Of a stretch of DNA of 47,804 nucleotides, positions 37,192 to 47,335 are shown piece by piece. Every line of letters starts with the position of its first letter. The stretch's first letter is position 1. The position numbers and the translations under genes were made by a program. The DNA is from Chthonomonadales bacterium (GTDB lineage Bacteria > Armatimonadota > Chthonomonadetes > Chthonomonadales > Chthonomonadaceae), in NCBI GenBank assembly GCA_038217285.1, contig JBBQPO010000013.1, positions 1-47,804 on the forward strand, read 5' to 3'. Under the pieces are notes generated by a model that was given only the letters and a program-made list of their open reading frames with translations, was not told the DNA's origin and did no database searches.

Positions 37192-37944
37192 CTATTCCGA
37201 TGCGAAAAGCGAATCACCGACTAGCAGCGGATTCTCCGCCGTCAGGTCGAATACCTCCGTGAAAGCCTGCACGACGACAGGTAGGAGTTCCGGGAGGGTG
37301 ACGGAGCGCCCGAGGAGACGGGTGAGGGAGGTGACACCGTAGTCATGGATGCCGCAGGGCACGATCAGGTCGAAGTGCGAGAGGTCGGTCTGCACGTTGA
37401 GGGCGAAACCGTGCTGCGTGATCCAGCGGCTCAGGCGGATACCGAGGGCGGCGACCTTGGCCGGGTGCGGGGTGTCGAGGCCGGTCCAGACACCGGGATA
37501 GCCGGGAAAGCGACCGGCCACGATTCCGAACGCCGCGACCGTCTGGATCATCGTCTCTTCGATATTGCGTACATAGCGGTGCAGATCGGGCTGGTGGGGC
37601 GCATCTCGCAGGTTGAAAATGGGATAGCCGACGAGCTGGCCCGGCCCGTGATAGGTGACATCCCCACCCCGGTCGCTCTCGACGACCGCGACGCCTTCGC
37701 GCTCCAGCCTTTCGTCCGCCGCGACGATATGGCTGCGGTCGGCGGCGCGCCCGAGCGTCAGCGTCGGCGGGTGTTCAAGCAGCAGCAGCGTATCGGGGAT
37801 CTCACCCGCCAGCCGCCGAGTTGCCCGGTCCCGCTGCACCTCCCAGGCCGCCCGATACTCCATGCGTCCCAGCCACTCCACCCGCATCTCCACGCCCACA
37901 CTCCCGTTATCCTGCGTCTCTTCTCCTCTGCTGCCGTTCGACAT
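37192..37944 (-). CDS. lipB: Lipoyl(octanoyl) transferase
   Basis: LLEHPPTLTLGR, DRGGDVTYHGPGQLVGYPI, KVAALG, HGFALNV, IVPCGI. Confidence 0.96.
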   Translation of the reverse strand: MSNGSRGEETQDNGSVGVEMRVEWLGRMEYRAAWEVQRDRATRRLAGEIPDTLLLLEHPPTLTLGRAADRSHIVAADERLEREGVAVVESDRGGDVTYHGPGQLVGYPIFNLRDAPHQPDLHRYVRNIEETMIQTVAAFGIVAGRFPGYPGVWTGLDTPHPAKVAALGIRLSRWITQHGFALNVQTDLSHFDLIVPCGIHDYGVTSLTRLLGRSVTLPELLPVVVQAFTEVFDLTAENPLLVGDSLFASE

Positions 37945-38061: not shown

Positions 38062-39474
38062 TCAGACAGAAGTGGAGGCGCGGACGATGAGTTGGCCAGG
38101 GACGGTAATACGACACGCGTCCACCGGAGCGCCTTCGATCAAGGCGATCAGGCGTTCCGCAGCCAGGCGACCTATCTCGCGAAAAGGCTGCCGGGTGGTA
38201 GTCAGGCCGCCGCACGTATGCTGCGCGTCCGGAATGTCGTCGAAGCCGGTCACGGCGATGTCTTCCGGAACACGCAGTCCGTGCGCGCGGATTACCCCAC
38301 ACATTTTCGTTGCCAGGGAATCGTCACAGGCGACAATCGCTTCTGGAAGAGACGGAAGCCGCATCCAGGCTTCCCATGCCTGTGTATAGCCTTTTACCTT
38401 CCACCGATCCGGCTCCAGAATCGCTTCCAGGTCCGGATCGTACGGCAGACCGGCGGCCACAAGCCCTGCGCGGTAGCCATCACGACGATCCCTCAAATTG
38501 GAACTGACGTTGCCGTTGAAGGCGAGCGGACCAATATAGGCGATTCGTTTCCGCCCGCTTTCCTTCAGATGCACGACCATATCTCGCATGGCGGCGACAT
38601 TATCGACATTCACGTATCCGACGGCGTCCGGAACATGGCGGCTTAACAGGGCCACCACCGGCAGCCCTGCGGCGGCGATTCGCTCCAGCGCCGATGTTTG
38701 GAGGTGTGGCGCGACCCAGAGCAGACCGTCGATATGCCCATTGAGGAAATCCATGCCGGAGTGTCGCTCGGGACGATCCGGCCAGCCGGTAAAAACCAGG
38801 ATGTCGTGCTTTGCCCGTTCGGCTGCTTCGTAGATCCCCGCGACGAGAGGGGGCGTGATCGACTTGCCGACATCCTCGTCCAGATTGCCCAGCCCGAAGA
38901 CCAGCAGACCGAGGATATGGGTTCGGCGCTGCCGGATGGCCCGCGCGAGCGCGCTGGGCATGAAGTTCAGCGCCTCCATGGCGCCGCCGATCCGGCTACG
39001 CGTCTCCGCACTCATGCGCCCTTTGGCATTGATGAAGTTCGAAATCGTCGTGGCGGACACGCCGGCGCGCCGGGCCACATCCGCGATAGTCGCCCGCTCT
39101 TTGCGAAGTACTGTCGCTGTCGCAGGCGTTTCGGCATCGACCGTTTTGATGACAGACTCTATCGGCACGGGCATGGCTATCGCTGCGGATTCGTCTACAA
39201 CGCCTCGAAATGTCGAATCACGCTCGGTATGGCGGTGAATCCAGTTGGCCACGCTCTGGTGATTGACGCCGAGATCACGGCTAATCCGGCGGATCTTCAA
39301 GCCCTGCGCGTAGAGTTCGACCGCACGACGCTGCAGGGCGTCCGAATAGCCGCGTCGGGGCGCGTCCGGAGTATAGCGTCGCTCGCAGTGGGAACATTTA
39401 TACCGCTGAACGCTGCCGTTTTTCCCGGCCTTTACCTGCGCCTCTGTCGCTTGACAGTAAGGACAAACCACCAT
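38062..39474 (-). CDS. LacI-family transcriptional regulator with N-terminal IS1 InsA-like zinc ribbon + HTH
   Basis: N-terminal CPYC...QRYKCSHC and HTH (RRISRDLGVNHQSVANW); then ATIADVARRAGVSATTIS LacI HTH and a sugar-binding domain (VPEDIAVTGFDD, LTTTRQP, LIVRAST). Confidence 0.92.
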   Translation of the reverse strand: MVVCPYCQATEAQVKAGKNGSVQRYKCSHCERRYTPDAPRRGYSDALQRRAVELYAQGLKIRRISRDLGVNHQSVANWIHRHTERDSTFRGVVDESAAIAMPVPIESVIKTVDAETPATATVLRKERATIADVARRAGVSATTISNFINAKGRMSAETRSRIGGAMEALNFMPSALARAIRQRRTHILGLLVFGLGNLDEDVGKSITPPLVAGIYEAAERAKHDILVFTGWPDRPERHSGMDFLNGHIDGLLWVAPHLQTSALERIAAAGLPVVALLSRHVPDAVGYVNVDNVAAMRDMVVHLKESGRKRIAYIGPLAFNGNVSSNLRDRRDGYRAGLVAAGLPYDPDLEAILEPDRWKVKGYTQAWEAWMRLPSLPEAIVACDDSLATKMCGVIRAHGLRVPEDIAVTGFDDIPDAQHTCGGLTTTRQPFREIGRLAAERLIALIEGAPVDACRITVPGQLIVRASTSV

Positions 39475-39598
39475 CGGAACCCTCGCATCTCTGGGTCTAT
39501 CTCCTGATAGATAGACAATCCCACCTAAATATCTCTCCTTATATTAGACACCGAACGCCATATCCCTTTTTATGTTTCATTTTTTGGCCTATTGAATC

Positions 39599-39655
39599 TT
39601 GACAGTGCTGTAGGCGTATGGTAAACTCCTATTAGTTGATAAACCTGGTTCATCA
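39599..39655 (+). promoter_or_regulatory. Sigma70 promoter plus operator-like palindrome for the DUF1592/DUF1552 operon
   Basis: TTGACA (39599-39604)-17 nt-TAAACT (39622-39627); TGATAAACC-T-GGTTCATCA (39637-39655), a 9-1-9 palindrome with one mismatch just after the predicted +1. Confidence 0.7.
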
Positions 39656-39678
39656 CCCTGCCACCGAGGGAGTCGCGC

Positions 39679-42168
39679 ATGCGATCAAGGATCCTGCTTG
39701 CATTACCGCTCAGTCTGGCGCCCCTGGTGACGCTGGCGCTCGTGCTGCCGTCCGGGGGACAGACCGGTCATAAACAGAGCGCTCCCGGCTTCGCACAGAC
39801 GACCGGGGCCTTTTTTGCGAAAAACTGCACAGCCTGCCATAACCCCAAAGTGAAGGCCGGGGGCCTCGACCTGCAGGCTCTGCAGCGCCCCAATTCCGTG
39901 ATGCGAGATCGCGCGTCGTGGGAGAGCATCGCACGTAAGATCCGCACCGGAGAGATGCCTCCGCCAGGGTCGCCGCGCCCCACTCTTGCGGAGATCAAGG
40001 CCACGGCGCTGCGCATCGAGGCCGAGTTCGACCGCGCCGACCGACGCGACGCCTCCAACCCCGGCAGAGTGACCGCCCGCCGCCTCAATCGCGCCGAGTA
40101 CGACAACACGATCCGCGATCTGCTGGGCGTGAACTCCCATCCGGCAGACGACTTCCCGCAGGACGACTCCGGCTACGGCTTCGACAACATTGGGGACGTC
40201 CTCTCGCTCTCCTCGTCGCAAATGGAGCGGTACGTCGCCTCCGCCGAGAAGGTTGCGCGCACCGCCGTCTTCGGCCCGGAGCCGCTGCAGCCCACGCTGG
40301 CCGTACACGAGGCGCACGGCAGGAAGATCGTCTCCATGATGGCGATTCCCGCCCATTACGACGCCTCCGGGTTCACCCTTCCCAACTCGCTCCATGTGAT
40401 GCACCGATTTCCGGAGGATGCCGAATACCTCTTCCGCCTCAAGCTCGAAGGGGTGCGGCCCCTCGGATCGGATGCGCTGCATCTCGCTTTGTGGATCGAC
40501 GGCAAGCAGAGGCAGGCCATCGATTTCGATCCGACCGGCCAGGCGGCCTTCAATGAGGATCGCCAGGACTTCTCGGCGCGAACCGTCGAATGCCGGCTGC
40601 GCGTCCCGGCGGGAGATCACTGGATCGCGGCGGTCATCACGCGGATGTACGACGGCCTCCCGACGGAGTATGCCGGCCCCAACCCCTCGACAAGGCACCT
40701 CATCGCGGCGGAGTTCAAGCCGCCGCCCGGCCTGTCGCCGGAGCGGATCGCACAGATCAAGCTGCGCGTCGAGGCCCGGCGCAAAGAGAAATCCCCGGTA
40801 AACGATGCTCGTGTCAACGTTCTGGAGATAGGCGGACCCTACGCGCAGGCGAAGGGGCCTTCCGACGAAAGCCTCCGTAAGGTCTTTACCTGTGGTCACC
40901 TGCATGGCGGGCATCAGCCGGGATGCGCGCGCAAGATCGTCGGCGACGTCGGCAGTCGGGCGTTCCGGCGGCCTCTGACAGTGCACGAGATCGACCGTTA
41001 CACGCAACTGGTCTCGCTCGCACAGAGCCAGGGCGACTCCTTCGAGGAGGGCATCTGTCTGGCGCTGCAGGGCATGCTCGTCTCACCGCATTTCCTTTTC
41101 CGCCTCGAGCGCGATCCCTCTGCGCCAACGGATGCGACCGGCCACCTGATCAGCCAGTACGAGCTGGCGTCACGCCTCTCGTATTTTCTGTGGAGCACCA
41201 TGCCCGACGACACGCTGCGGGCATGCGCCGCTCAGCAGACCCTGCGGCAGCCCGCTGTGCTGAAGGCGCAGATCAAGCGGTTGCTGCAAGACCCGCGTTC
41301 GAGCGCCCTGGCCGAGAACTTCGAGGGGCAGTGGCTGCAGGTCCGCGCGCTCGAGTCGTTCAAGCCAGACCGAGCGCGTTTCCCGGATTTCGACGACTAT
41401 CTTCGCATGTCGATGCGCCAGGAGACGCAGATGTTCTTCGAAAATGTGATACGCGAAGACCGCAGCATCGTCGATCTATTGGTTGGAAAGTACTCTTTTC
41501 TCAATCAACGTCTTGCAGAGTTCTATGGCGTCTCCGGCGTCGAGGGACCGGCGTTTCGTAAGGTCGATCTCACCGGCACCCAGCGCGGCGGGATTTTGAC
41601 ACAGGCGAGCGTCCTGGCGGTCACGTCGTATCCCAACCGGACCTCGCCGGTCCTGCGGGGCAAATGGATTCTGGAAAATATTTTAAACGCGCCGCCGCCC
41701 GCCCCTCCGCCGGGAGTGCCCACGCTGGATGTCTCGGCCGTCGGCACGGAGGCTTCCCTTCGGCAGCAGTTGGAGCAGCACCGTAAAAACCCGACATGCG
41801 CCTCCTGCCATGCGCGCATGGACCCGTTGGGATTCGGCCTGGAGAATTTCGACGCCATCGGCGCGTGGCGCGCCAACGACGGCAAGATCGTGATCGACTC
41901 CTCCGGTCTGTTGCCGGACGGACGCTCTTTCCGTGGCCCGGATGGGCTGAAGGCCCTATTGAAGACGGATCGCGCCGCCTTTGCCCAGTGTCTGACCTCG
42001 AAACTGCTCACCTACGCGCTCGGACGCGGCCTCGAGGGTTATGACAGGGCGACGGTAAAGGATATCACGCTGCGTAGCGCGGCCAACGACTATCGTTTTT
42101 CGGATCTGGTCCTGGAGATCGTCACCAGCAGACCCTTCCAGATGCGCCGAGGAGACAGAACCTTATGA
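39679..42168 (+). CDS. DUF1592/PSD-domain protein with c-type heme motifs (copy 1)
   Basis: Signal peptide, CTACH, MPP, RRLNRAEYDNTIRDL, GFDN, LASRLSYFLWSTMPD, RTSPVLRG, CASCHARMDPLG. Confidence 0.92.
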   Translation: MRSRILLALPLSLAPLVTLALVLPSGGQTGHKQSAPGFAQTTGAFFAKNCTACHNPKVKAGGLDLQALQRPNSVMRDRASWESIARKIRTGEMPPPGSPRPTLAEIKATALRIEAEFDRADRRDASNPGRVTARRLNRAEYDNTIRDLLGVNSHPADDFPQDDSGYGFDNIGDVLSLSSSQMERYVASAEKVARTAVFGPEPLQPTLAVHEAHGRKIVSMMAIPAHYDASGFTLPNSLHVMHRFPEDAEYLFRLKLEGVRPLGSDALHLALWIDGKQRQAIDFDPTGQAAFNEDRQDFSARTVECRLRVPAGDHWIAAVITRMYDGLPTEYAGPNPSTRHLIAAEFKPPPGLSPERIAQIKLRVEARRKEKSPVNDARVNVLEIGGPYAQAKGPSDESLRKVFTCGHLHGGHQPGCARKIVGDVGSRAFRRPLTVHEIDRYTQLVSLAQSQGDSFEEGICLALQGMLVSPHFLFRLERDPSAPTDATGHLISQYELASRLSYFLWSTMPDDTLRACAAQQTLRQPAVLKAQIKRLLQDPRSSALAENFEGQWLQVRALESFKPDRARFPDFDDYLRMSMRQETQMFFENVIREDRSIVDLLVGKYSFLNQRLAEFYGVSGVEGPAFRKVDLTGTQRGGILTQASVLAVTSYPNRTSPVLRGKWILENILNAPPPAPPPGVPTLDVSAVGTEASLRQQLEQHRKNPTCASCHARMDPLGFGLENFDAIGAWRANDGKIVIDSSGLLPDGRSFRGPDGLKALLKTDRAAFAQCLTSKLLTYALGRGLEGYDRATVKDITLRSAANDYRFSDLVLEIVTSRPFQMRRGDRTL

Positions 42169-43520
42169 ACTTTCTGACCCGCAATCCTCTCTCCCGCCGA
42201 ACACTGCTGCGCGGTGTGGGCGCGGCCATCGCCCTGCCCATGCTGGAGGCGATGACCCCAGCGCTCGCCGCCGCAGGCCGCGCGCGCAAAGCGCCCGTCC
42301 GCCTCGTCTTCGTCTATGTGCCCAACGGCATCATCATGAAGGACTGGACGCCGAAGGGGATGGGCAGCGAATACGAGATCACGCGCATTCTCAATCCGCT
42401 CAAGGCCTATCGGGACGATATGATGCTGCTCTCGGGGCTGGCCGACCACAACGGCAACGAACTGGGCGACGGCGCAGGCGATCATGCGCGCGCGGGCGCT
42501 TCGTTTCTGTCGGGCGTTCACTGCAAGAAGACGAGTGGGGCGGACATCCACGGCGGGGTATCGGCGGACCAGATCGCGGCGCGAGCGTTCGAGTCGCAGA
42601 CGCGCTTCGCCTCGCTCGAATTCGGCTGTGAAGACTCCCGAACGGTCGGCAACTGCGACTCGGGGTATAGCTGCGCCTACACCAACAGCATCTCCTGGCG
42701 CGGCCCCACGACACCGGTGCCGCCGGAGGTGAATCCCCGCCTGATGTTCGAGCGACTGTTCGGCACCGAAGACTTTAAGCTGGACCCTGCCACACGAGCC
42801 CGCCGGGCGGGCTACCGCAAGAGCATCCTCGATATGGTTCGGGAGGACACCCAGACCCTGACCGGCACACTGGGCCAGGCCGATAAGCGGAAGATGGACG
42901 AGTATCTCACCTCCGTTCGCGAGATCGAGCTCCGCATTCAGAACGCGGAGCGGGACACGCATGCGGTGAAGCCGGGGATCGACAAGCCGACCGGTATTCC
43001 GGTCGCGTTCGGCGACTACGTCTCCCTGATGTTCGACCTGCAGGCTGCCGCCCTGCGCGCCGATCTGACGCGCGTATCGACGATGATGATCGGACGCGAG
43101 GGCAGCATGCGCACCTATCCGGAGATCAATATCGCGGACAGCCATCATCCGCTGACCCACCATCGCAACAATCCCGAGTTCATCGAAAAGGTGACGCAGA
43201 TCAATCAGTTCCACATCGGTCTGTTCGGGCGCTTTCTGGGGCAGCTCAAGGCGACACCGGACGGCGACGGCACCATGCTCGACAACTCCCTCATCGTCTA
43301 CGGAAGCGGCCTCGGCGACGGCAACCGCCATACCCACGAGAATCTGCCCATCCTGCTAGCGGGAAAAGGCGGTGGGAGCGTGAAGTCGGGCCGTCACATC
43401 GCCTATACCAGCGAGACGCCCGTAGCGAACCTGTATATGACGCTCCTGGATCGCGCCGGCGTCCATCCCGGCTCGATCGGCGACAGCACCGGCAAACTCG
43501 TTCAACTGGATGCCATCTAA
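42165..43520 (+). CDS. DUF1552 (HXXSHH) domain protein (copy 1)
   Basis: LSRRTLLRG, YVPNG, GDHAR, SADQIAA, SCAYTNSISW, HHPLTHH, GDGNRH; ATGA overlap. Confidence 0.92.
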   Translation: MNFLTRNPLSRRTLLRGVGAAIALPMLEAMTPALAAAGRARKAPVRLVFVYVPNGIIMKDWTPKGMGSEYEITRILNPLKAYRDDMMLLSGLADHNGNELGDGAGDHARAGASFLSGVHCKKTSGADIHGGVSADQIAARAFESQTRFASLEFGCEDSRTVGNCDSGYSCAYTNSISWRGPTTPVPPEVNPRLMFERLFGTEDFKLDPATRARRAGYRKSILDMVREDTQTLTGTLGQADKRKMDEYLTSVREIELRIQNAERDTHAVKPGIDKPTGIPVAFGDYVSLMFDLQAAALRADLTRVSTMMIGREGSMRTYPEINIADSHHPLTHHRNNPEFIEKVTQINQFHIGLFGRFLGQLKATPDGDGTMLDNSLIVYGSGLGDGNRHTHENLPILLAGKGGGSVKSGRHIAYTSETPVANLYMTLLDRAGVHPGSIGDSTGKLVQLDAI

Positions 43521-43522
43521 CC

Positions 43523-45985
43523 ATGAAGAATGCTAAAGTTCGCACACGGGCGCTTTTGTTAACCGGTCTGCTGCCTGCGACCACGTTGCTCTATGCGGCG
43601 GCGCTGCCTCCGGGCCACGCGCACGGGAAACCGGCGGGCGGGGCGGCGAAGTCGGCCGCAATGGCGGATCCAAAGAGTGTCGCCGCCGGTTTCGGGCACG
43701 ACGTCCTGCCCCTCGTCCGGACCTACTGCGTCGGCTGCCACACTGGCAAGGGCGCCAGTGCGGGCATCGACCTTTCGATCGCGAAAGATGCGAGCGCCGT
43801 CCTGAAGGATAGGGACTCCTGGGATCGTGTCGCGCAGAACATCGCGTCCGGGCATATGCCCCCGAAAGGCAGCCCCGCGCCGAGCGGCCCGCAGCGCGAG
43901 GCCCTGGTCACCTGGGTGCAGAATACGACGACGGCGGCGGACTGTAAGCTCAAAGATCCGGGCCATGTCACGCTGCGCCGTCTCAACCGCGCGGAGTACA
44001 ACAACACGGTGCGGGACCTGTGCGGCGTCGATATTCATCCGGCGGACGCTTTTCCCAACGACGATGTCGGGTACGGCTTCGACAACATCGGGGACGTTCT
44101 GTCGATTTCGCCGCTGCTGATGGAGAAGTATATCGCCGTCGCAGGCAAGGTGGCTCACGCCGCGTTCCAGAACCCTGACGAGTTGCTGCCGCCCATCCTC
44201 TTCGAGCCGCCCCGTCTGACATATCTCAATCAGGGCAGCAGGGCGGGCGACCATGCCGTTCTCGCCGCCCTGAACGCGGAGGCCGGCTGCGACTACACCT
44301 TTCCGGTAGCGGCGGACTATCTGCTGCGCGCGGTCGCCTATCAGAGTCAGGCAGGCCCTGATTCGGCCATCATGCAGATCAAGCTGGACGATAAGGAGAT
44401 CGCGGTTCAGAAAGTTTTCAGCGGACCGCGCGATCCGAAGCCTGTGGATATCCATATCTCGGTTCCGGCAGGACGCCATCACTTCAGCGTCGTCTTCACC
44501 AATCCTTTTCACGATGACAGCACCACAGGAACCCGACAAAATCGCAATCGTGACCGCAAACTGAACATCAAGGCGCTGGCTATCGTCGGTCCTTTGCGGG
44601 GGCCGAATGCGCTGTCTCCGCTGGCGAAGCAGCTCGGTACGATCCCGTCGGACCCCGCCGCCCGCAGCGCCATAGCTCGGAAGTTCCTGGCCGATTTTGT
44701 CCGGCGCGCCTATCGTCGCCCCGCCACGAAAGAGGACGTCGATAAGCTGGTACACTACGCGGACCTCGCCCAGGGGCAGGGAGAGACATTCCAGCAGGGC
44801 GTCGAATACGCGATGACGGCGGCGATGTGTTCGCCCAAATTTCTGTTTCGCATCGAAACCGACATTCCCGGCGTCACCAACGCCGTCAGGACGACGGCGA
44901 AAACACCTGGCAAGTCGGGCCTGAAGACGGCGGGCCTGAAAGCCGATGCGGGCAAATTTTTCCTGAACGACTATGCGCTGGCGTCGCGCCTGTCGTACTT
45001 CCTCTGGTCGACCATGCCGGACGAAGAGCTGTTCAACCTGGCGGCAAAAGGCAGGCTGCAGGATCCGCTGGTGCTGACAGCGCAGGCGAAGCGGATGCTC
45101 AAAGATCCGCGTTCGCGCGCGCTCTCCGACAACTTCGCGGGGCAGTGGCTGCAGTTGCGAAGTCTCGACAGCGTCTCGCCCGACCCACAGCGCTTCACCG
45201 GCTTCGACGACGGGCTGCGGCAGGACATGAAGACGGAGACAGAGATGTTCTTCCAGGCGATCGTTCGCGAAGATCGCAGCATTCTCGACTTTCTGGACGC
45301 CCGGTACACGTTTCTCAACGAGCCGCTGGCGAAGCACTACGGAATCGCGGGCGTGCAGGGCGGCGATTTCCGCCGGGTCACGCTCACAGGGGATCAGCGG
45401 GGCGGCATCCTGACGCAGGCGAGCCTGTTGACGGTGACGTCGAACCCGACGCGCACCAGCCCCGTCAAGCGAGGCAAGTGGGTCATGGAGAACCTGCTGG
45501 GCACGCCGCTGCCGCCCGCGCCGCCCGGCGTCCCCCCGCTCTCGGATGACAATAAAGGCCCTCTGGTGGGCACCTTGCGGCAGCGCATGGAGCAGCACCG
45601 CGCGAATCCGGCCTGCGCCACCTGCCATGCCCGCATGGACCCCATCGGCTTCGGCCTGGAGAACTACGACGCGGTCGGCAAATGGCGAGTGGCCGATGGC
45701 GACACCCCGGTGGATGCGAGCGGCGTTCTGCCGGACGGCTCCAAATTCAGCGGCCCTGCCCAGCTCAAACAGGTGTTGATGCGCAAGCAAACTCTGTTCG
45801 TGCACTGTCTGGCGGACAAGCTGATGACCTATGCCCTGGGCCGAGGCCTGGAGCGCACGGACCGTTGCAACCTCGATGACATTGTCAAGAGCACTCAAAA
45901 AGACGGCGACCGGTTTTCTGCTCTGGTTGCCGCCATCGTTCAAAGCCATCCTTTCCGCGAGCAGCGACGAGACAAGGGAGAATAA
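43523..45985 (+). CDS. DUF1592/PSD-domain protein with c-type heme motifs (copy 2)
   Basis: CVGCH, RRLNRAEYNNTVRDL, LASRLSYFLWSTMPD, RTSPVKRG, CATCHARMDPIG. Confidence 0.92.
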   Translation: MKNAKVRTRALLLTGLLPATTLLYAAALPPGHAHGKPAGGAAKSAAMADPKSVAAGFGHDVLPLVRTYCVGCHTGKGASAGIDLSIAKDASAVLKDRDSWDRVAQNIASGHMPPKGSPAPSGPQREALVTWVQNTTTAADCKLKDPGHVTLRRLNRAEYNNTVRDLCGVDIHPADAFPNDDVGYGFDNIGDVLSISPLLMEKYIAVAGKVAHAAFQNPDELLPPILFEPPRLTYLNQGSRAGDHAVLAALNAEAGCDYTFPVAADYLLRAVAYQSQAGPDSAIMQIKLDDKEIAVQKVFSGPRDPKPVDIHISVPAGRHHFSVVFTNPFHDDSTTGTRQNRNRDRKLNIKALAIVGPLRGPNALSPLAKQLGTIPSDPAARSAIARKFLADFVRRAYRRPATKEDVDKLVHYADLAQGQGETFQQGVEYAMTAAMCSPKFLFRIETDIPGVTNAVRTTAKTPGKSGLKTAGLKADAGKFFLNDYALASRLSYFLWSTMPDEELFNLAAKGRLQDPLVLTAQAKRMLKDPRSRALSDNFAGQWLQLRSLDSVSPDPQRFTGFDDGLRQDMKTETEMFFQAIVREDRSILDFLDARYTFLNEPLAKHYGIAGVQGGDFRRVTLTGDQRGGILTQASLLTVTSNPTRTSPVKRGKWVMENLLGTPLPPAPPGVPPLSDDNKGPLVGTLRQRMEQHRANPACATCHARMDPIGFGLENYDAVGKWRVADGDTPVDASGVLPDGSKFSGPAQLKQVLMRKQTLFVHCLADKLMTYALGRGLERTDRCNLDDIVKSTQKDGDRFSALVAAIVQSHPFREQRRDKGE

Positions 45986-45991
45986 GAGAAG

Positions 45992-47335
45992 ATGTCCAGA
46001 GAATCGTTATCACGACGTACGTTTTTGCGCGGACTGGGAACGGCGATGGCCCTGCCCATGCTGGACGCGATGCTCCCACAGGGTGCGCTCGCCCAGGCGG
46101 CGGGCAAGACGCGCGTAAACCGCATGGCCTTCATCTTCATTCCGAACGGCGTCAACGTCCCGCTCTGGACGCCGACGACGGAGGGCGGTTTGCAGTTGTC
46201 TCCCACCCTGGCGTCGATGAAGAACGTCAAGAACAAGGTCTCGGTGCTCACCGGTCTGGCGCAGCACAACGCCTTCGCGCTCGGCGACGGCGGCGGCGAT
46301 CATGCGCGCAGCACGGCGACCTGGCTGACCGGCTGCCACCCGCGCAAAACCGACGGGGCCGACATCCGAACGGGTATCTCGGTCGATCAACTGGCGGCCG
46401 AGCGCGTGGGCCGGAAGACCCCCTTCGCCTCGCTGGAGCTTGGCTGCGAGCGGGGCGCGCAGTCGGGCAGTTGCGACACCGGCTATAGCTGCGCCTACTC
46501 CTCCTCGATCTCCTGGCGCGGGCCGAGCACTCCCAACGCCCACGAAGTCGATCCGCGCGCGGTTTTCGAGCGCCTGTTCGGCAACAGCAGCCCCAGTGAG
46601 ACGGCCGAGAGTCGAGCGCGTCGCCAGGGCCTGAAGCGCAGCGTGCTGGACTTCGTGCTGGACGATGCCAACCAGCTCAAGAAGCAGTTGGGAACCAAAG
46701 ATCAGAGCAAGCTCGACGAGTATTTCACGGGAGTCCGCGAGATCGAAAATCGCCTGGCCCGCGTCGAAAAGATCAATGCCGATCCCAGCCTCGGCTCCAA
46801 AATGCCGGCAGGCATCCCGCAGGGGATGGGCGAGCATATCCGCCTGCTCTGCGACATGATGACCCTCGCATTCCAGGCCGACCTGACGCGCATCTGCACC
46901 TTCATGATCGCCAACGACGGCAGCAACCGGAGCTACAAGGACCTCGGCGTGTCGGAAGGCCATCACGATATGTCGCACCACGGCGGCGACCCGTACAAGC
47001 TCGATCAGGTCGCGAAGATCAACAAGTTCCACGCGGAGCAGGTCGCCTATTTCCTGGAAAAGCTGGACAGTATCCACGAACCCGATGGCACCCTGCTCGA
47101 CAACTCCATGATCGTCTACGGCGCAGGCATCAGCGACGGCAACCGCCATAACCACGACAACCTGCCTATTCTGCTGGCGGGCGGCGGCGCGGGAACGCTT
47201 AAGCAGCAGGGCCAACACCTCCGATTCGCGCAGGACACGCCCCTCAACAACCTGTTCCTCTCCCTGCTCGACCGCATGGGCGTACACGCCGAATCGATAG
47301 GAGACAGCACAGGCCGCCTCACCACCCTTATCTAA
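45992..47335 (+). CDS. DUF1552 (HXXSHH) domain protein (copy 2)
   Basis: LSRRTFLRG, FIPNG, GDHAR, SCAYSSSISW, HHDMSHH, DGNRHNH. Confidence 0.92.
   Translation: MSRESLSRRTFLRGLGTAMALPMLDAMLPQGALAQAAGKTRVNRMAFIFIPNGVNVPLWTPTTEGGLQLSPTLASMKNVKNKVSVLTGLAQHNAFALGDGGGDHARSTATWLTGCHPRKTDGADIRTGISVDQLAAERVGRKTPFASLELGCERGAQSGSCDTGYSCAYSSSISWRGPSTPNAHEVDPRAVFERLFGNSSPSETAESRARRQGLKRSVLDFVLDDANQLKKQLGTKDQSKLDEYFTGVREIENRLARVEKINADPSLGSKMPAGIPQGMGEHIRLLCDMMTLAFQADLTRICTFMIANDGSNRSYKDLGVSEGHHDMSHHGGDPYKLDQVAKINKFHAEQVAYFLEKLDSIHEPDGTLLDNSMIVYGAGISDGNRHNHDNLPILLAGGGAGTLKQQGQHLRFAQDTPLNNLFLSLLDRMGVHAESIGDSTGRLTTLI

Follow-up and report, generated by a model that had tools for sequence, protein, structure and literature searches.

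The gene described here lies in a 47,804-nucleotide (nt) stretch of Chthonomonadales bacterium DNA (GenBank assembly GCA_038217285.1, contig JBBQPO010000013.1), which is called the window throughout. Very probably it encodes a real and conserved fusion, in which a zinc ribbon and helix-turn-helix (HTH) module derived from InsA of the IS1 family of insertion sequences (IS) precedes a complete LacI-type repressor. A single open reading frame (ORF) occupies exactly positions 38062..39474 of the minus strand, starts with ATG and codes for 470 amino acids (aa) with the residues MVVCPYCQ...KAGKNGSVQRYKCSHCERRYT...YSDALQRRAVELYAQGLKIRRISRDLGVNHQSVANW. In an NCBIfam search, residues 4–90 aligned with positions 1–87 of the 199 positions of NF033558 ('IS1 family transposase'; E 2e-17, 63.8 bits). 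This score stays under the whole-protein cut-off of 100, as would be expected of a protein with the InsA part alone. Pfam placed Zn_ribbon_InsA at residues 2–30 with 23.9 bits, slightly under its cut-off of 26.1, and HTH_23 and HTH_Tnp_1 at residues 49–83 and 40–84, respectively. The LacI-type HTH (PF00356) was found at residues 129–174, which makes it internal in the fusion protein and not N-terminal, and it covered the profile from position 1 to 46 of 46 (56.3 bits against a cut-off of 27; E 2.8e-15). Peripla_BP_3 extended over residues 302–468 with 111.7 bits, and Peripla_BP_1 reached 63.3 bits. Residues 125–468 covered NCBIfam profiles of the LacI family end to end, namely GntR (positions 3–333 of 333, E 1.7e-40), RbsR, CcpA and PurR, and the profiles aligned in this manner are of the dimeric type. 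The match to the LacI-subfamily profile NF007075 ended at position 332 of 358, indicating that a C-terminal tetramerisation segment is lacking. ORF coordinates, quoted residues and domain matches all agree with an earlier interpretation made from the DNA letters, here called the sequence-only reading, which had described a zinc ribbon and HTH, a linker and a complete LacI.

An AlphaFold2 model calculated with 38 homologues reached a mean pLDDT (predicted local distance difference test score) of 82.4. The N-terminal module (N-module) was predicted to form β-hairpins at residues 13–27 and helices at residues 45–56, 61–68 and 72–87 with pLDDT values of about 85–95, and the same structural elements were obtained when it was folded alone. 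The following 38 or so residues (88–125) form a linker predicted to be disordered (pLDDT <50). Behind it, the model displayed an ordinary LacI HTH, a hinge and an alternating β/α core with pLDDT mostly above 90. A sequence search of the PDB with the N-module revealed weak likeness to the PAI subdomain of Sleeping Beauty, the Pax paired domain and Cgl2762; the designed or solved 'CAP REPEAT' chain 8vd6 matches the N-module HTH similarly. Foldseek with the N-module model returned no match at E ≤0.001 and overall pointed to nothing beyond a generic transposase or paired-type HTH, and neither the PDB sequence search nor Foldseek yielded a solved structure of the whole InsA-like module.

The same architecture, which the sequence-only reading had proposed to look for elsewhere, turned out to be widespread among the closest relatives. 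A search of 5.8 billion proteins gave 1393 matches at E ≤0.001 among 8000 scored candidates. Of the best 120, which were examined, 91 carried the N-module with at least 40 bits, and 119 were kept for analysis of the LacI part. Homologues were 40–81% identical to the window protein, the closest among the best 120 matches being P0002 with 81%. Those with names belong to Armatimonadota (Chthonomonadaceae, Chthonomonadales, Capsulimonadaceae, Capsulimonas and Armatimonadaceae metagenome-assembled genomes), with at least five paralogues in Capsulimonas corticalis, and one homologue cluster is labelled Fibrella sp. Their database names read 'LacI family transcriptional regulator' and, in two cases, 'LacI/PurR.../transposase-like protein'. 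When 401 Armatimonadota genomes were sampled, the N-module profile matched 71 of them at E ≤1e-5. Thirteen fused frames of 456–509 aa (111–142 bits) were present in seven of these genomes, which carry three family codes. Besides the window's own genome, they comprise one from its genus, another from its family and four more. A scan of metagenome contigs with LacI-part patterns gave 80 loci, of which L022 alone was fused and the other 79 were plain LacI; 61 of the plain loci had 200 bp of usable upstream sequence and were reused as controls. Inspection by hand of L008, L010 and L015 confirmed that the N-module is truly absent there. In a FastTree of the LacI parts, 'LacI-only' rows were scattered among the fusions (18 changes). 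Many such rows are incomplete metagenome calls, and we therefore draw no history of gain and loss from this tree.

In a 38-sequence alignment C27, C30 and G17 were invariant, while C4, P5, C7, Q13, R32, R33, Y34, G58, I64 and W78 were conserved to at least 90%. All 11 other fused loci inspected have their start codon a few codons ahead of the first cysteine, and in the window a GAGGG Shine-Dalgarno-like run on the gene strand ends 5 nt ahead of the annotated ATG. The linker contains an in-frame methionine at residue 100, which is not conserved among homologues. A translation start at the LacI HTH, which the sequence-only reading had named as a way to disprove the fusion, is therefore without support in these sequences, given the upstream starts, the conserved cysteines and the lack of a conserved methionine inside the linker.

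To estimate selection, the window gene was compared with L004 (dS, the synonymous substitution rate, about 0.75–1.0); more distant pairs were near or at saturation. The ratio of nonsynonymous to synonymous rates (dN/dS) was 0.15 for the zinc ribbon, 0.19 for the N-module HTH, 0.88 for the linker, 0.11 for the LacI HTH and 0.18 for the LacI core. Family mean pairwise identities of the same five parts were 0.55, 0.39, 0.14, 0.64 and 0.52, respectively. The N-module HTH gave 0.63 against L005, so its estimate is noisy. By these values, constraint on the N-module is about as strong as on the LacI core, and both heads are under purifying selection. Determination of dN/dS for the InsA part, another check suggested at the outset, thus gave values of 0.15 and 0.19 next to 0.18 for the LacI core. 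A fusion unique to this genome and decaying is contradicted by these ratios and by its presence in three families.

The origin of the N-module is indicated by its non-fused relatives. Below the fusions, a second tier of profile matches in the 401 genomes consisted of short ORFs of 85–175 aa scoring up to 96 bits. Identical copies were present within single genomes: seven of 132 aa in G145, six of 154 aa in G134 and three of 133 aa in G306. At L125 and L124, ORF1 corresponds to positions 1–112 of the IS1 profile and the next ORF to positions 113/156–199, and the IS1-family units are bounded by terminal inverted repeats (IRs) about 800–950 bp apart. Judged by their sequences, the multi-copy units are ordinary, active-looking IS1-family elements of Armatimonadota, and the InsA ORFs of such multi-copy elements of the same phylum are the closest non-fused relatives of the N-module. 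This relationship supports the proposal of the sequence-only reading that an IS1 InsA-derived module was exapted. A tree of the N-module (148 rows, 94 columns, quick IQ-TREE) was calculated from those of 224 matching proteins that had at most two matched stretches and near-full profile coverage. Proteins with 8–22 tandem HTH repeats, which topped the representative search by accumulated score, were left out. The 43 IS or short rows formed one clade (SH-aLRT 93), and all 90 fusions fell outside it. On this tree the fusion label requires eight changes, but the starred branches force only one, so that a single origin is allowed rather than demonstrated.

The InsA-like zinc ribbon and HTH (IS1 profile positions 1–81) was also found at the C-terminus of P0217 (376 aa, TPR) and of P0243 (1227 aa), where the partner is kinase/cyclase-like (SARP/TOMM-like). 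In P0146, the module stands in front of HTH repeats. P0217 and P0243 look like further independent recruitments of the InsA-like module. The tandem-HTH proteins, P0121–P0140 and others, are 400–1700 aa long, and their 8–22 HTHs resemble the HTH of the N-module.

The window gene itself does not have the properties of an IS1 element. The IS1 profile matched the window only at residues 1–88 of the fusion, which agrees with the earlier remark that no InsB/DDE region was noticed, and a search of window and genome with this profile found no InsB remnant near the gene. Genome-wide matches to IS-end position weight matrices (PWMs) included no right-end repeat next to it, and no second copy of the N-module was found in the window's own genome, which is 95% complete. 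Thus, the InsB/DDE part, the flanking IR pair and the multiple copies of an IS1 element are all lacking, and for these reasons we regard the N-module as an IS1-derived domain in a host regulator. LacI-family characteristics, by comparison of sequence, are all present, namely the LacI HTH, the effector/dimerisation core and a palindromic putative operator near a predicted promoter. As is typical of a domesticated domain, orthologues exist in several lineages, the gene is immobile and under purifying selection, and synteny is conserved in the window, L004 and L005. The earlier statement that terminal inverted repeats were not noticed holds for a flanking pair and has to be amended for the region just upstream of the gene, where two repeats resemble the left inverted repeat (IRL) of IS elements. 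The sole other IS1-profile match of the genome, C92:7586-8083 (+) or locus L002 (E 3e-11, positions 14–170), has one in-frame TAG within an open frame of 380 aa; it may represent an IS1-family transposase that is degraded or frameshifted.

The two IRL-like repeats, termed B1 and B2, are direct repeats spaced 34 bp start to start, both in the orientation of the gene. The inverted repeat inside B2 has its arms at 39495–39502 and 39509–39516. B-like sites with a GTCTAAT core were seen at L004 (two), L005, L009 (two) and L013, and the Capsulimonas paralogue L139 displays the same layout with two TTTGTCTA repeats followed by GGGTATAAT. For comparison, an IS-end consensus was derived from 28 ends of 15 IS1-family loci and reads GGGAGTG(T/C)CTAA... 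In the resulting PWMs, B2 scored 14.76 bits, a value reached by 18 of 12.4 million genome positions (P about 5e-4 for the 204-bp intergenic region), and the core of B1 scored 14.73 bits, a value reached by 24 positions (P about 7e-4 for the same region). The 12-nt core of B1 gave 18.07 bits, found at two positions genome-wide, and B1 shares an identical run of 14 nt with the IRL of the IS1-family element at L115. In the reverse test, a PWM built from eight B instances was applied to 15 IS loci. With both PWM lengths, its single best match fell on a terminal repeat of the IS in 5 of them, where about 0.003 per locus is expected by chance; not all of these loci are independent. The tip GGGAG of the IR is only partly kept in the B repeats. 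IRLs of IS1-family elements carry a −10-like GGTATACT at their inner end, 8–12 nt before the insA ATG, and boxes resembling AGGATATA or GGGTATAAT terminate the B sites. In L111, L115, L119 and L123–L125, the IRL ends in a (TG)GGTATACT-like extended −10 that is separated from the insA ATG by just 6–10 nt, which implies that the leader is very short or absent. The top genome-wide match to the IS-end PWMs lies in the window at 931–958 (−), 38 kb from the fusion gene (AGGAGTGCCGAAATATG..., 19.7 bits), and may be either a solitary IS end or a chance match.

A second type of site, A, was found on the far side of the 204-bp region, across which the regulator is divergent from a DUF1592/DUF1552 operon. 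The same divergent pairing occurs at L004 and L005, and the intergenic region was aligned with four related loci (L004, L005, L009 and L013). Site A begins 9 bp past the −10 box of the predicted promoter of the operon, whose hexamers TTGACA/TAAACT can also be read directly upstream in L004, L005 and L009. With a PWM made from L004, L005 and L009 only, site A scored 31.2 bits and was the top position of the 6.2-Mb genome, followed by one of 22.5 bits. In the one LacI-only relative available for comparison (L015, n=1), there are palindromes that contain the same GATAAAC half-site, and a proximal B-like motif is absent. Upstream of L143, a paralogue from Capsulimonas sp., an A-like palindrome, GTGAACCTGGTTTAC, stands beside an opposite-strand TTGACA-17-TATATT promoter; the A-type operator layout therefore reaches a distant paralogue. 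All features are listed in the table.

Features of the fusion gene and its control region (positions in the window; sites B1 and B2 are written in the direction of the gene).
Feature	Position	Strand	Basis or remark
Whole fusion gene, 470 aa	38062..39474	-	ORF, domains, AlphaFold2 model
Zinc ribbon, residues 4-30 (CPYC...CSHC)	39385..39465	-	Profiles, Cys conservation, AlphaFold2
InsA-type three-helix HTH, residues 45-87	39214..39342	-	HTH_23, HTH_Tnp_1, AlphaFold2 helices
Predicted disordered linker, residues 88-125	39100..39213	-	pLDDT <50; identity 0.14; dN/dS 0.88
LacI-family HTH, residues 129-174, hinge next	38953..39090	-	PF00356; dN/dS 0.11
LacI-type periplasmic-binding-protein-like effector/dimerisation core, residues 186-468, without tetramerisation segment	38071..38919	-	Profiles
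Site B2, IRL-like repeat, GGGATTGTCTATCTATCAGGAGATAGAC	39495..39522	-	Ends 20 bp before ATG; contains 8-6-8 inverted repeat
Site B1, IRL-like repeat, GTGTCTAATATAAGGAGAGATATT	39528..39551	-	53 bp before ATG; same orientation as B2
Predicted sigma-70-type promoter, TTGACA-17-TAAACT, TG before -10	39599..39627	+	Faces divergent operon
Site A, 21-bp palindromic putative LacI-type operator, TTGATAAACCTGGTTCATCAC	39636..39656	.	Conserved in L004, L005, L009; weaker in L013
Putative target operon, two tandem pairs of DUF1592/PSD-PSCyt (829, 820 aa) and DUF1552 HXXSHH (451, 447 aa)	39679..47335	+	Domain search, synteny

We propose that an ancestor captured the 5′ part of an IS1-family element, comprising the InsA-type zinc ribbon and HTH and probably also the adjoining IRL. 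A dimer of the present protein would sit on site A through its LacI HTH and hinge and block transcription of the DUF1592/DUF1552 operon. Binding of an effector, probably a sugar or glycan product, to the core would lift this repression. The two InsA-like heads of the dimer would occupy B1 and B2, in the way that E. coli InsA occupies the IRL at its own promoter. Occupancy of B may result in autoregulation, in a second anchor that raises local occupancy, or in both, possibly with a DNA loop from B to A of about 106–138 bp (centre to centre). As a LacI tetramerisation segment is lacking, looping through the second anchor would be a substitute for it. The sequence-only reading had suggested a two-headed regulator that might loop DNA or bind IS ends, and this idea receives indirect support from the two distinct, conserved types of site, one of them IR-like. 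We consider the complete mechanism, with the LacI head at A and the InsA-like head at B, to be reasonably probable, and for binding of the N-module to B we put the chances at even or slightly better. Joint domestication of the head and its cognate terminal repeat is advanced more tentatively, its prospects falling a little short of even. It would mean that the IRL became operator and promoter and that the head became an effector-independent second anchor, with autoregulation, looping between the two site types and repeated recruitment of the module.

Several observations weigh against this proposal. B was defined by eye in five related loci, and its strong likeness to IRs appears to be confined to the window. 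When rigid IS-end PWMs were applied, none of the orthologues L004, L005, L009 and L013 exceeded the best of the 61 plain-LacI control upstream regions, nor did any of five further independent paralogue loci. With the 16-nt tip PWM, the controls were surpassed in only 3 of 12 fused loci (window, L007 and L011). Genome-wide matches to the IS-end PWMs other than the local sites look like noise. The N-module tree is poorly resolved, with 74 of 144 forks open. A linker of 38 aa cannot span 105–140 bp unless the DNA is bent, so that simultaneous binding of A and B by one dimer is speculative. Because the IRLs of IS elements contain a −10 box, part of the likeness of B could be due to shared promoter architecture, and promoter prediction in the intergenic region found no sigma-70-type promoter on the strand of the regulator.

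These last points lead to the main rival of the proposed mechanism, in which the fusion is real and the B repeats are simply promoter elements of the regulator, either inherited from an IRL or convergent. The N-module would then bind elsewhere or nothing specific, or would serve as a zinc/redox-sensing or protein-interaction module. The −10-like GGTATACT close before the insA ATG, the boxes at the end of the B sites, the lack of any other predicted promoter for the regulator and the weak performance of the rigid PWMs across loci are all in its favour. However, the conserved part of B is GTCTAAT, the core of the IR, and not a −10 or −35 hexamer. Moreover, W78, G58 and I64 in the N-module HTH are at least 90% conserved and this HTH has a dN/dS of 0.19, as expected for a working DNA reader, and E. 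coli InsA binds exactly such a site (PMC12428005). We therefore judge the promoter-only explanation of B unlikely, yet clearly more serious than the other alternatives. One of these is a host-encoded, effector-responsive repressor of IS1-family transposition, with the InsA-like head on IS ends genome-wide and the LacI part contributing dimerisation and signal input. In E. coli, overproduction of InsA nearly abolishes IS1 transposition by competition at IRL and the right inverted repeat (IRR), as reported in PMC12428005, and the phylum commonly harbours IS1-family elements whose IR cores match. Such IS copies were, however, not found in this genome, in which the IS1 profile matched only the fusion and the weak, stop-containing C92 locus, so that a role in IS silencing is disfavoured. 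The single-copy N-domain, the noise-like genome-wide PWM list and the conserved local operator in synteny with a metabolic-looking operon likewise stand against it, and we regard it as improbable.

The fusion might also be an artefact or accident, that is, the result of an IS having recently inserted into a LacI gene, a chimera created by mis-assembly, or an insA remnant wrongly joined to a LacI with an internal start, for which the linker methionine would be available. This is contradicted by the family data. The architecture is uninterrupted at 40–81% identity in 91 of the best 120 relatives and in seven genomes of three families, with both parts under purifying selection. The linker methionine is not conserved, the GAGGG run precedes the annotated ATG, and an InsB remnant was not found in the searches described above. 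An accident of this kind is thus highly improbable. Our favoured explanation remains the repressor with its LacI head at A and its InsA-like head at B.

Compared with known systems, the fusion resembles InsA of IS1 in its N-terminal CxxC...CxxC zinc ribbon followed by an HTH and in having IR-like repeats at the corresponding location immediately ahead of the start codon. In E. coli, InsA acts as a repressor of the IS1 promoter, with which IRL overlaps, and it competes for both IRL and IRR (PMC12428005). In contrast to IS1, the fusion has no InsB/DDE part, no frameshift site and no right-end repeat, is present in single copy, and carries the module covalently joined to a complete LacI repressor as a conserved host gene across families. 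With LacI/GalR repressors (LacI, PurR, CcpA, RbsR and GntR-type) it shares the HTH, the hinge and the two-lobed effector core, the palindromic putative operator at the target promoter and divergent local regulation. What sets it apart from them is an additional DNA-binding head of unrelated type, located about 125 residues ahead of the LacI HTH. E. coli LacI loops DNA with the help of auxiliary operators about 92 bp away (O1–O3); unlike that protein, the fusion lacks the tetramerisation segment, and if it loops DNA, it would do so through another type of head acting on another type of site.

Fusion of a transposase DNA-binding domain to a host protein, kept by selection, is also seen in SETMAR and other eukaryotic transposase-capture factors (Pax paired domain, CGGBP1), and the N-module HTH has weak sequence and fold likeness to the Pax and Sleeping Beauty PAI domains. 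SETMAR is described in the abstract of PMC9062482 as still binding the ancestral terminal inverted repeats. Unlike SETMAR, Pax and CGGBP1, the fusion is prokaryotic and related to IS1 rather than to Tc1/mariner or hAT. Its partner is itself a sequence-specific DNA-binding repressor, and the IR-like sites are local, in the control region of the gene itself, not dispersed. From the other proteins with an InsA-like module (P0217, P0243 and P0146) it differs in partner and in the position of the module.

The DUF1592/PSD-PSCyt proteins of the divergent operon display cytochrome-c-like N-terminal matches. The regulator is followed after 117 bp by a gene for a LipB/LplA-type lipoyl or octanoyl transferase (37192–37944), which is likewise on the minus strand. 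As no terminator-like site was found between the two genes, they may be co-transcribed. The host is a soil or sediment bacterium, and the regulator would be a sugar repressor.

Capture of transposase DNA-binding domains is a well-documented source of new transcription factors in eukaryotes. Clear descriptions from prokaryotes of a protein head that was retained along with its apparent DNA target are, to our knowledge, rare, and a full-text literature search, with subscription literature and supplements outside its scope, found no paper on the LacI/InsA fusion architecture. The family offers a compact, testable system: a single protein joins two unrelated DNA readers through a flexible tether, the ligand-binding core is coupled to just one of them, and a single 204-bp control region holds both types of site. 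It bears on the question of how one-component regulators can acquire auxiliary sites or loop DNA in the absence of tetramerisation and how IS ends turn into cis-elements of the host. In addition, it provides a regulatory handle on the widespread, uncharacterised DUF1592/DUF1552 gene pairs, and it illustrates how bacteria can convert part of a transposon into a regulator.

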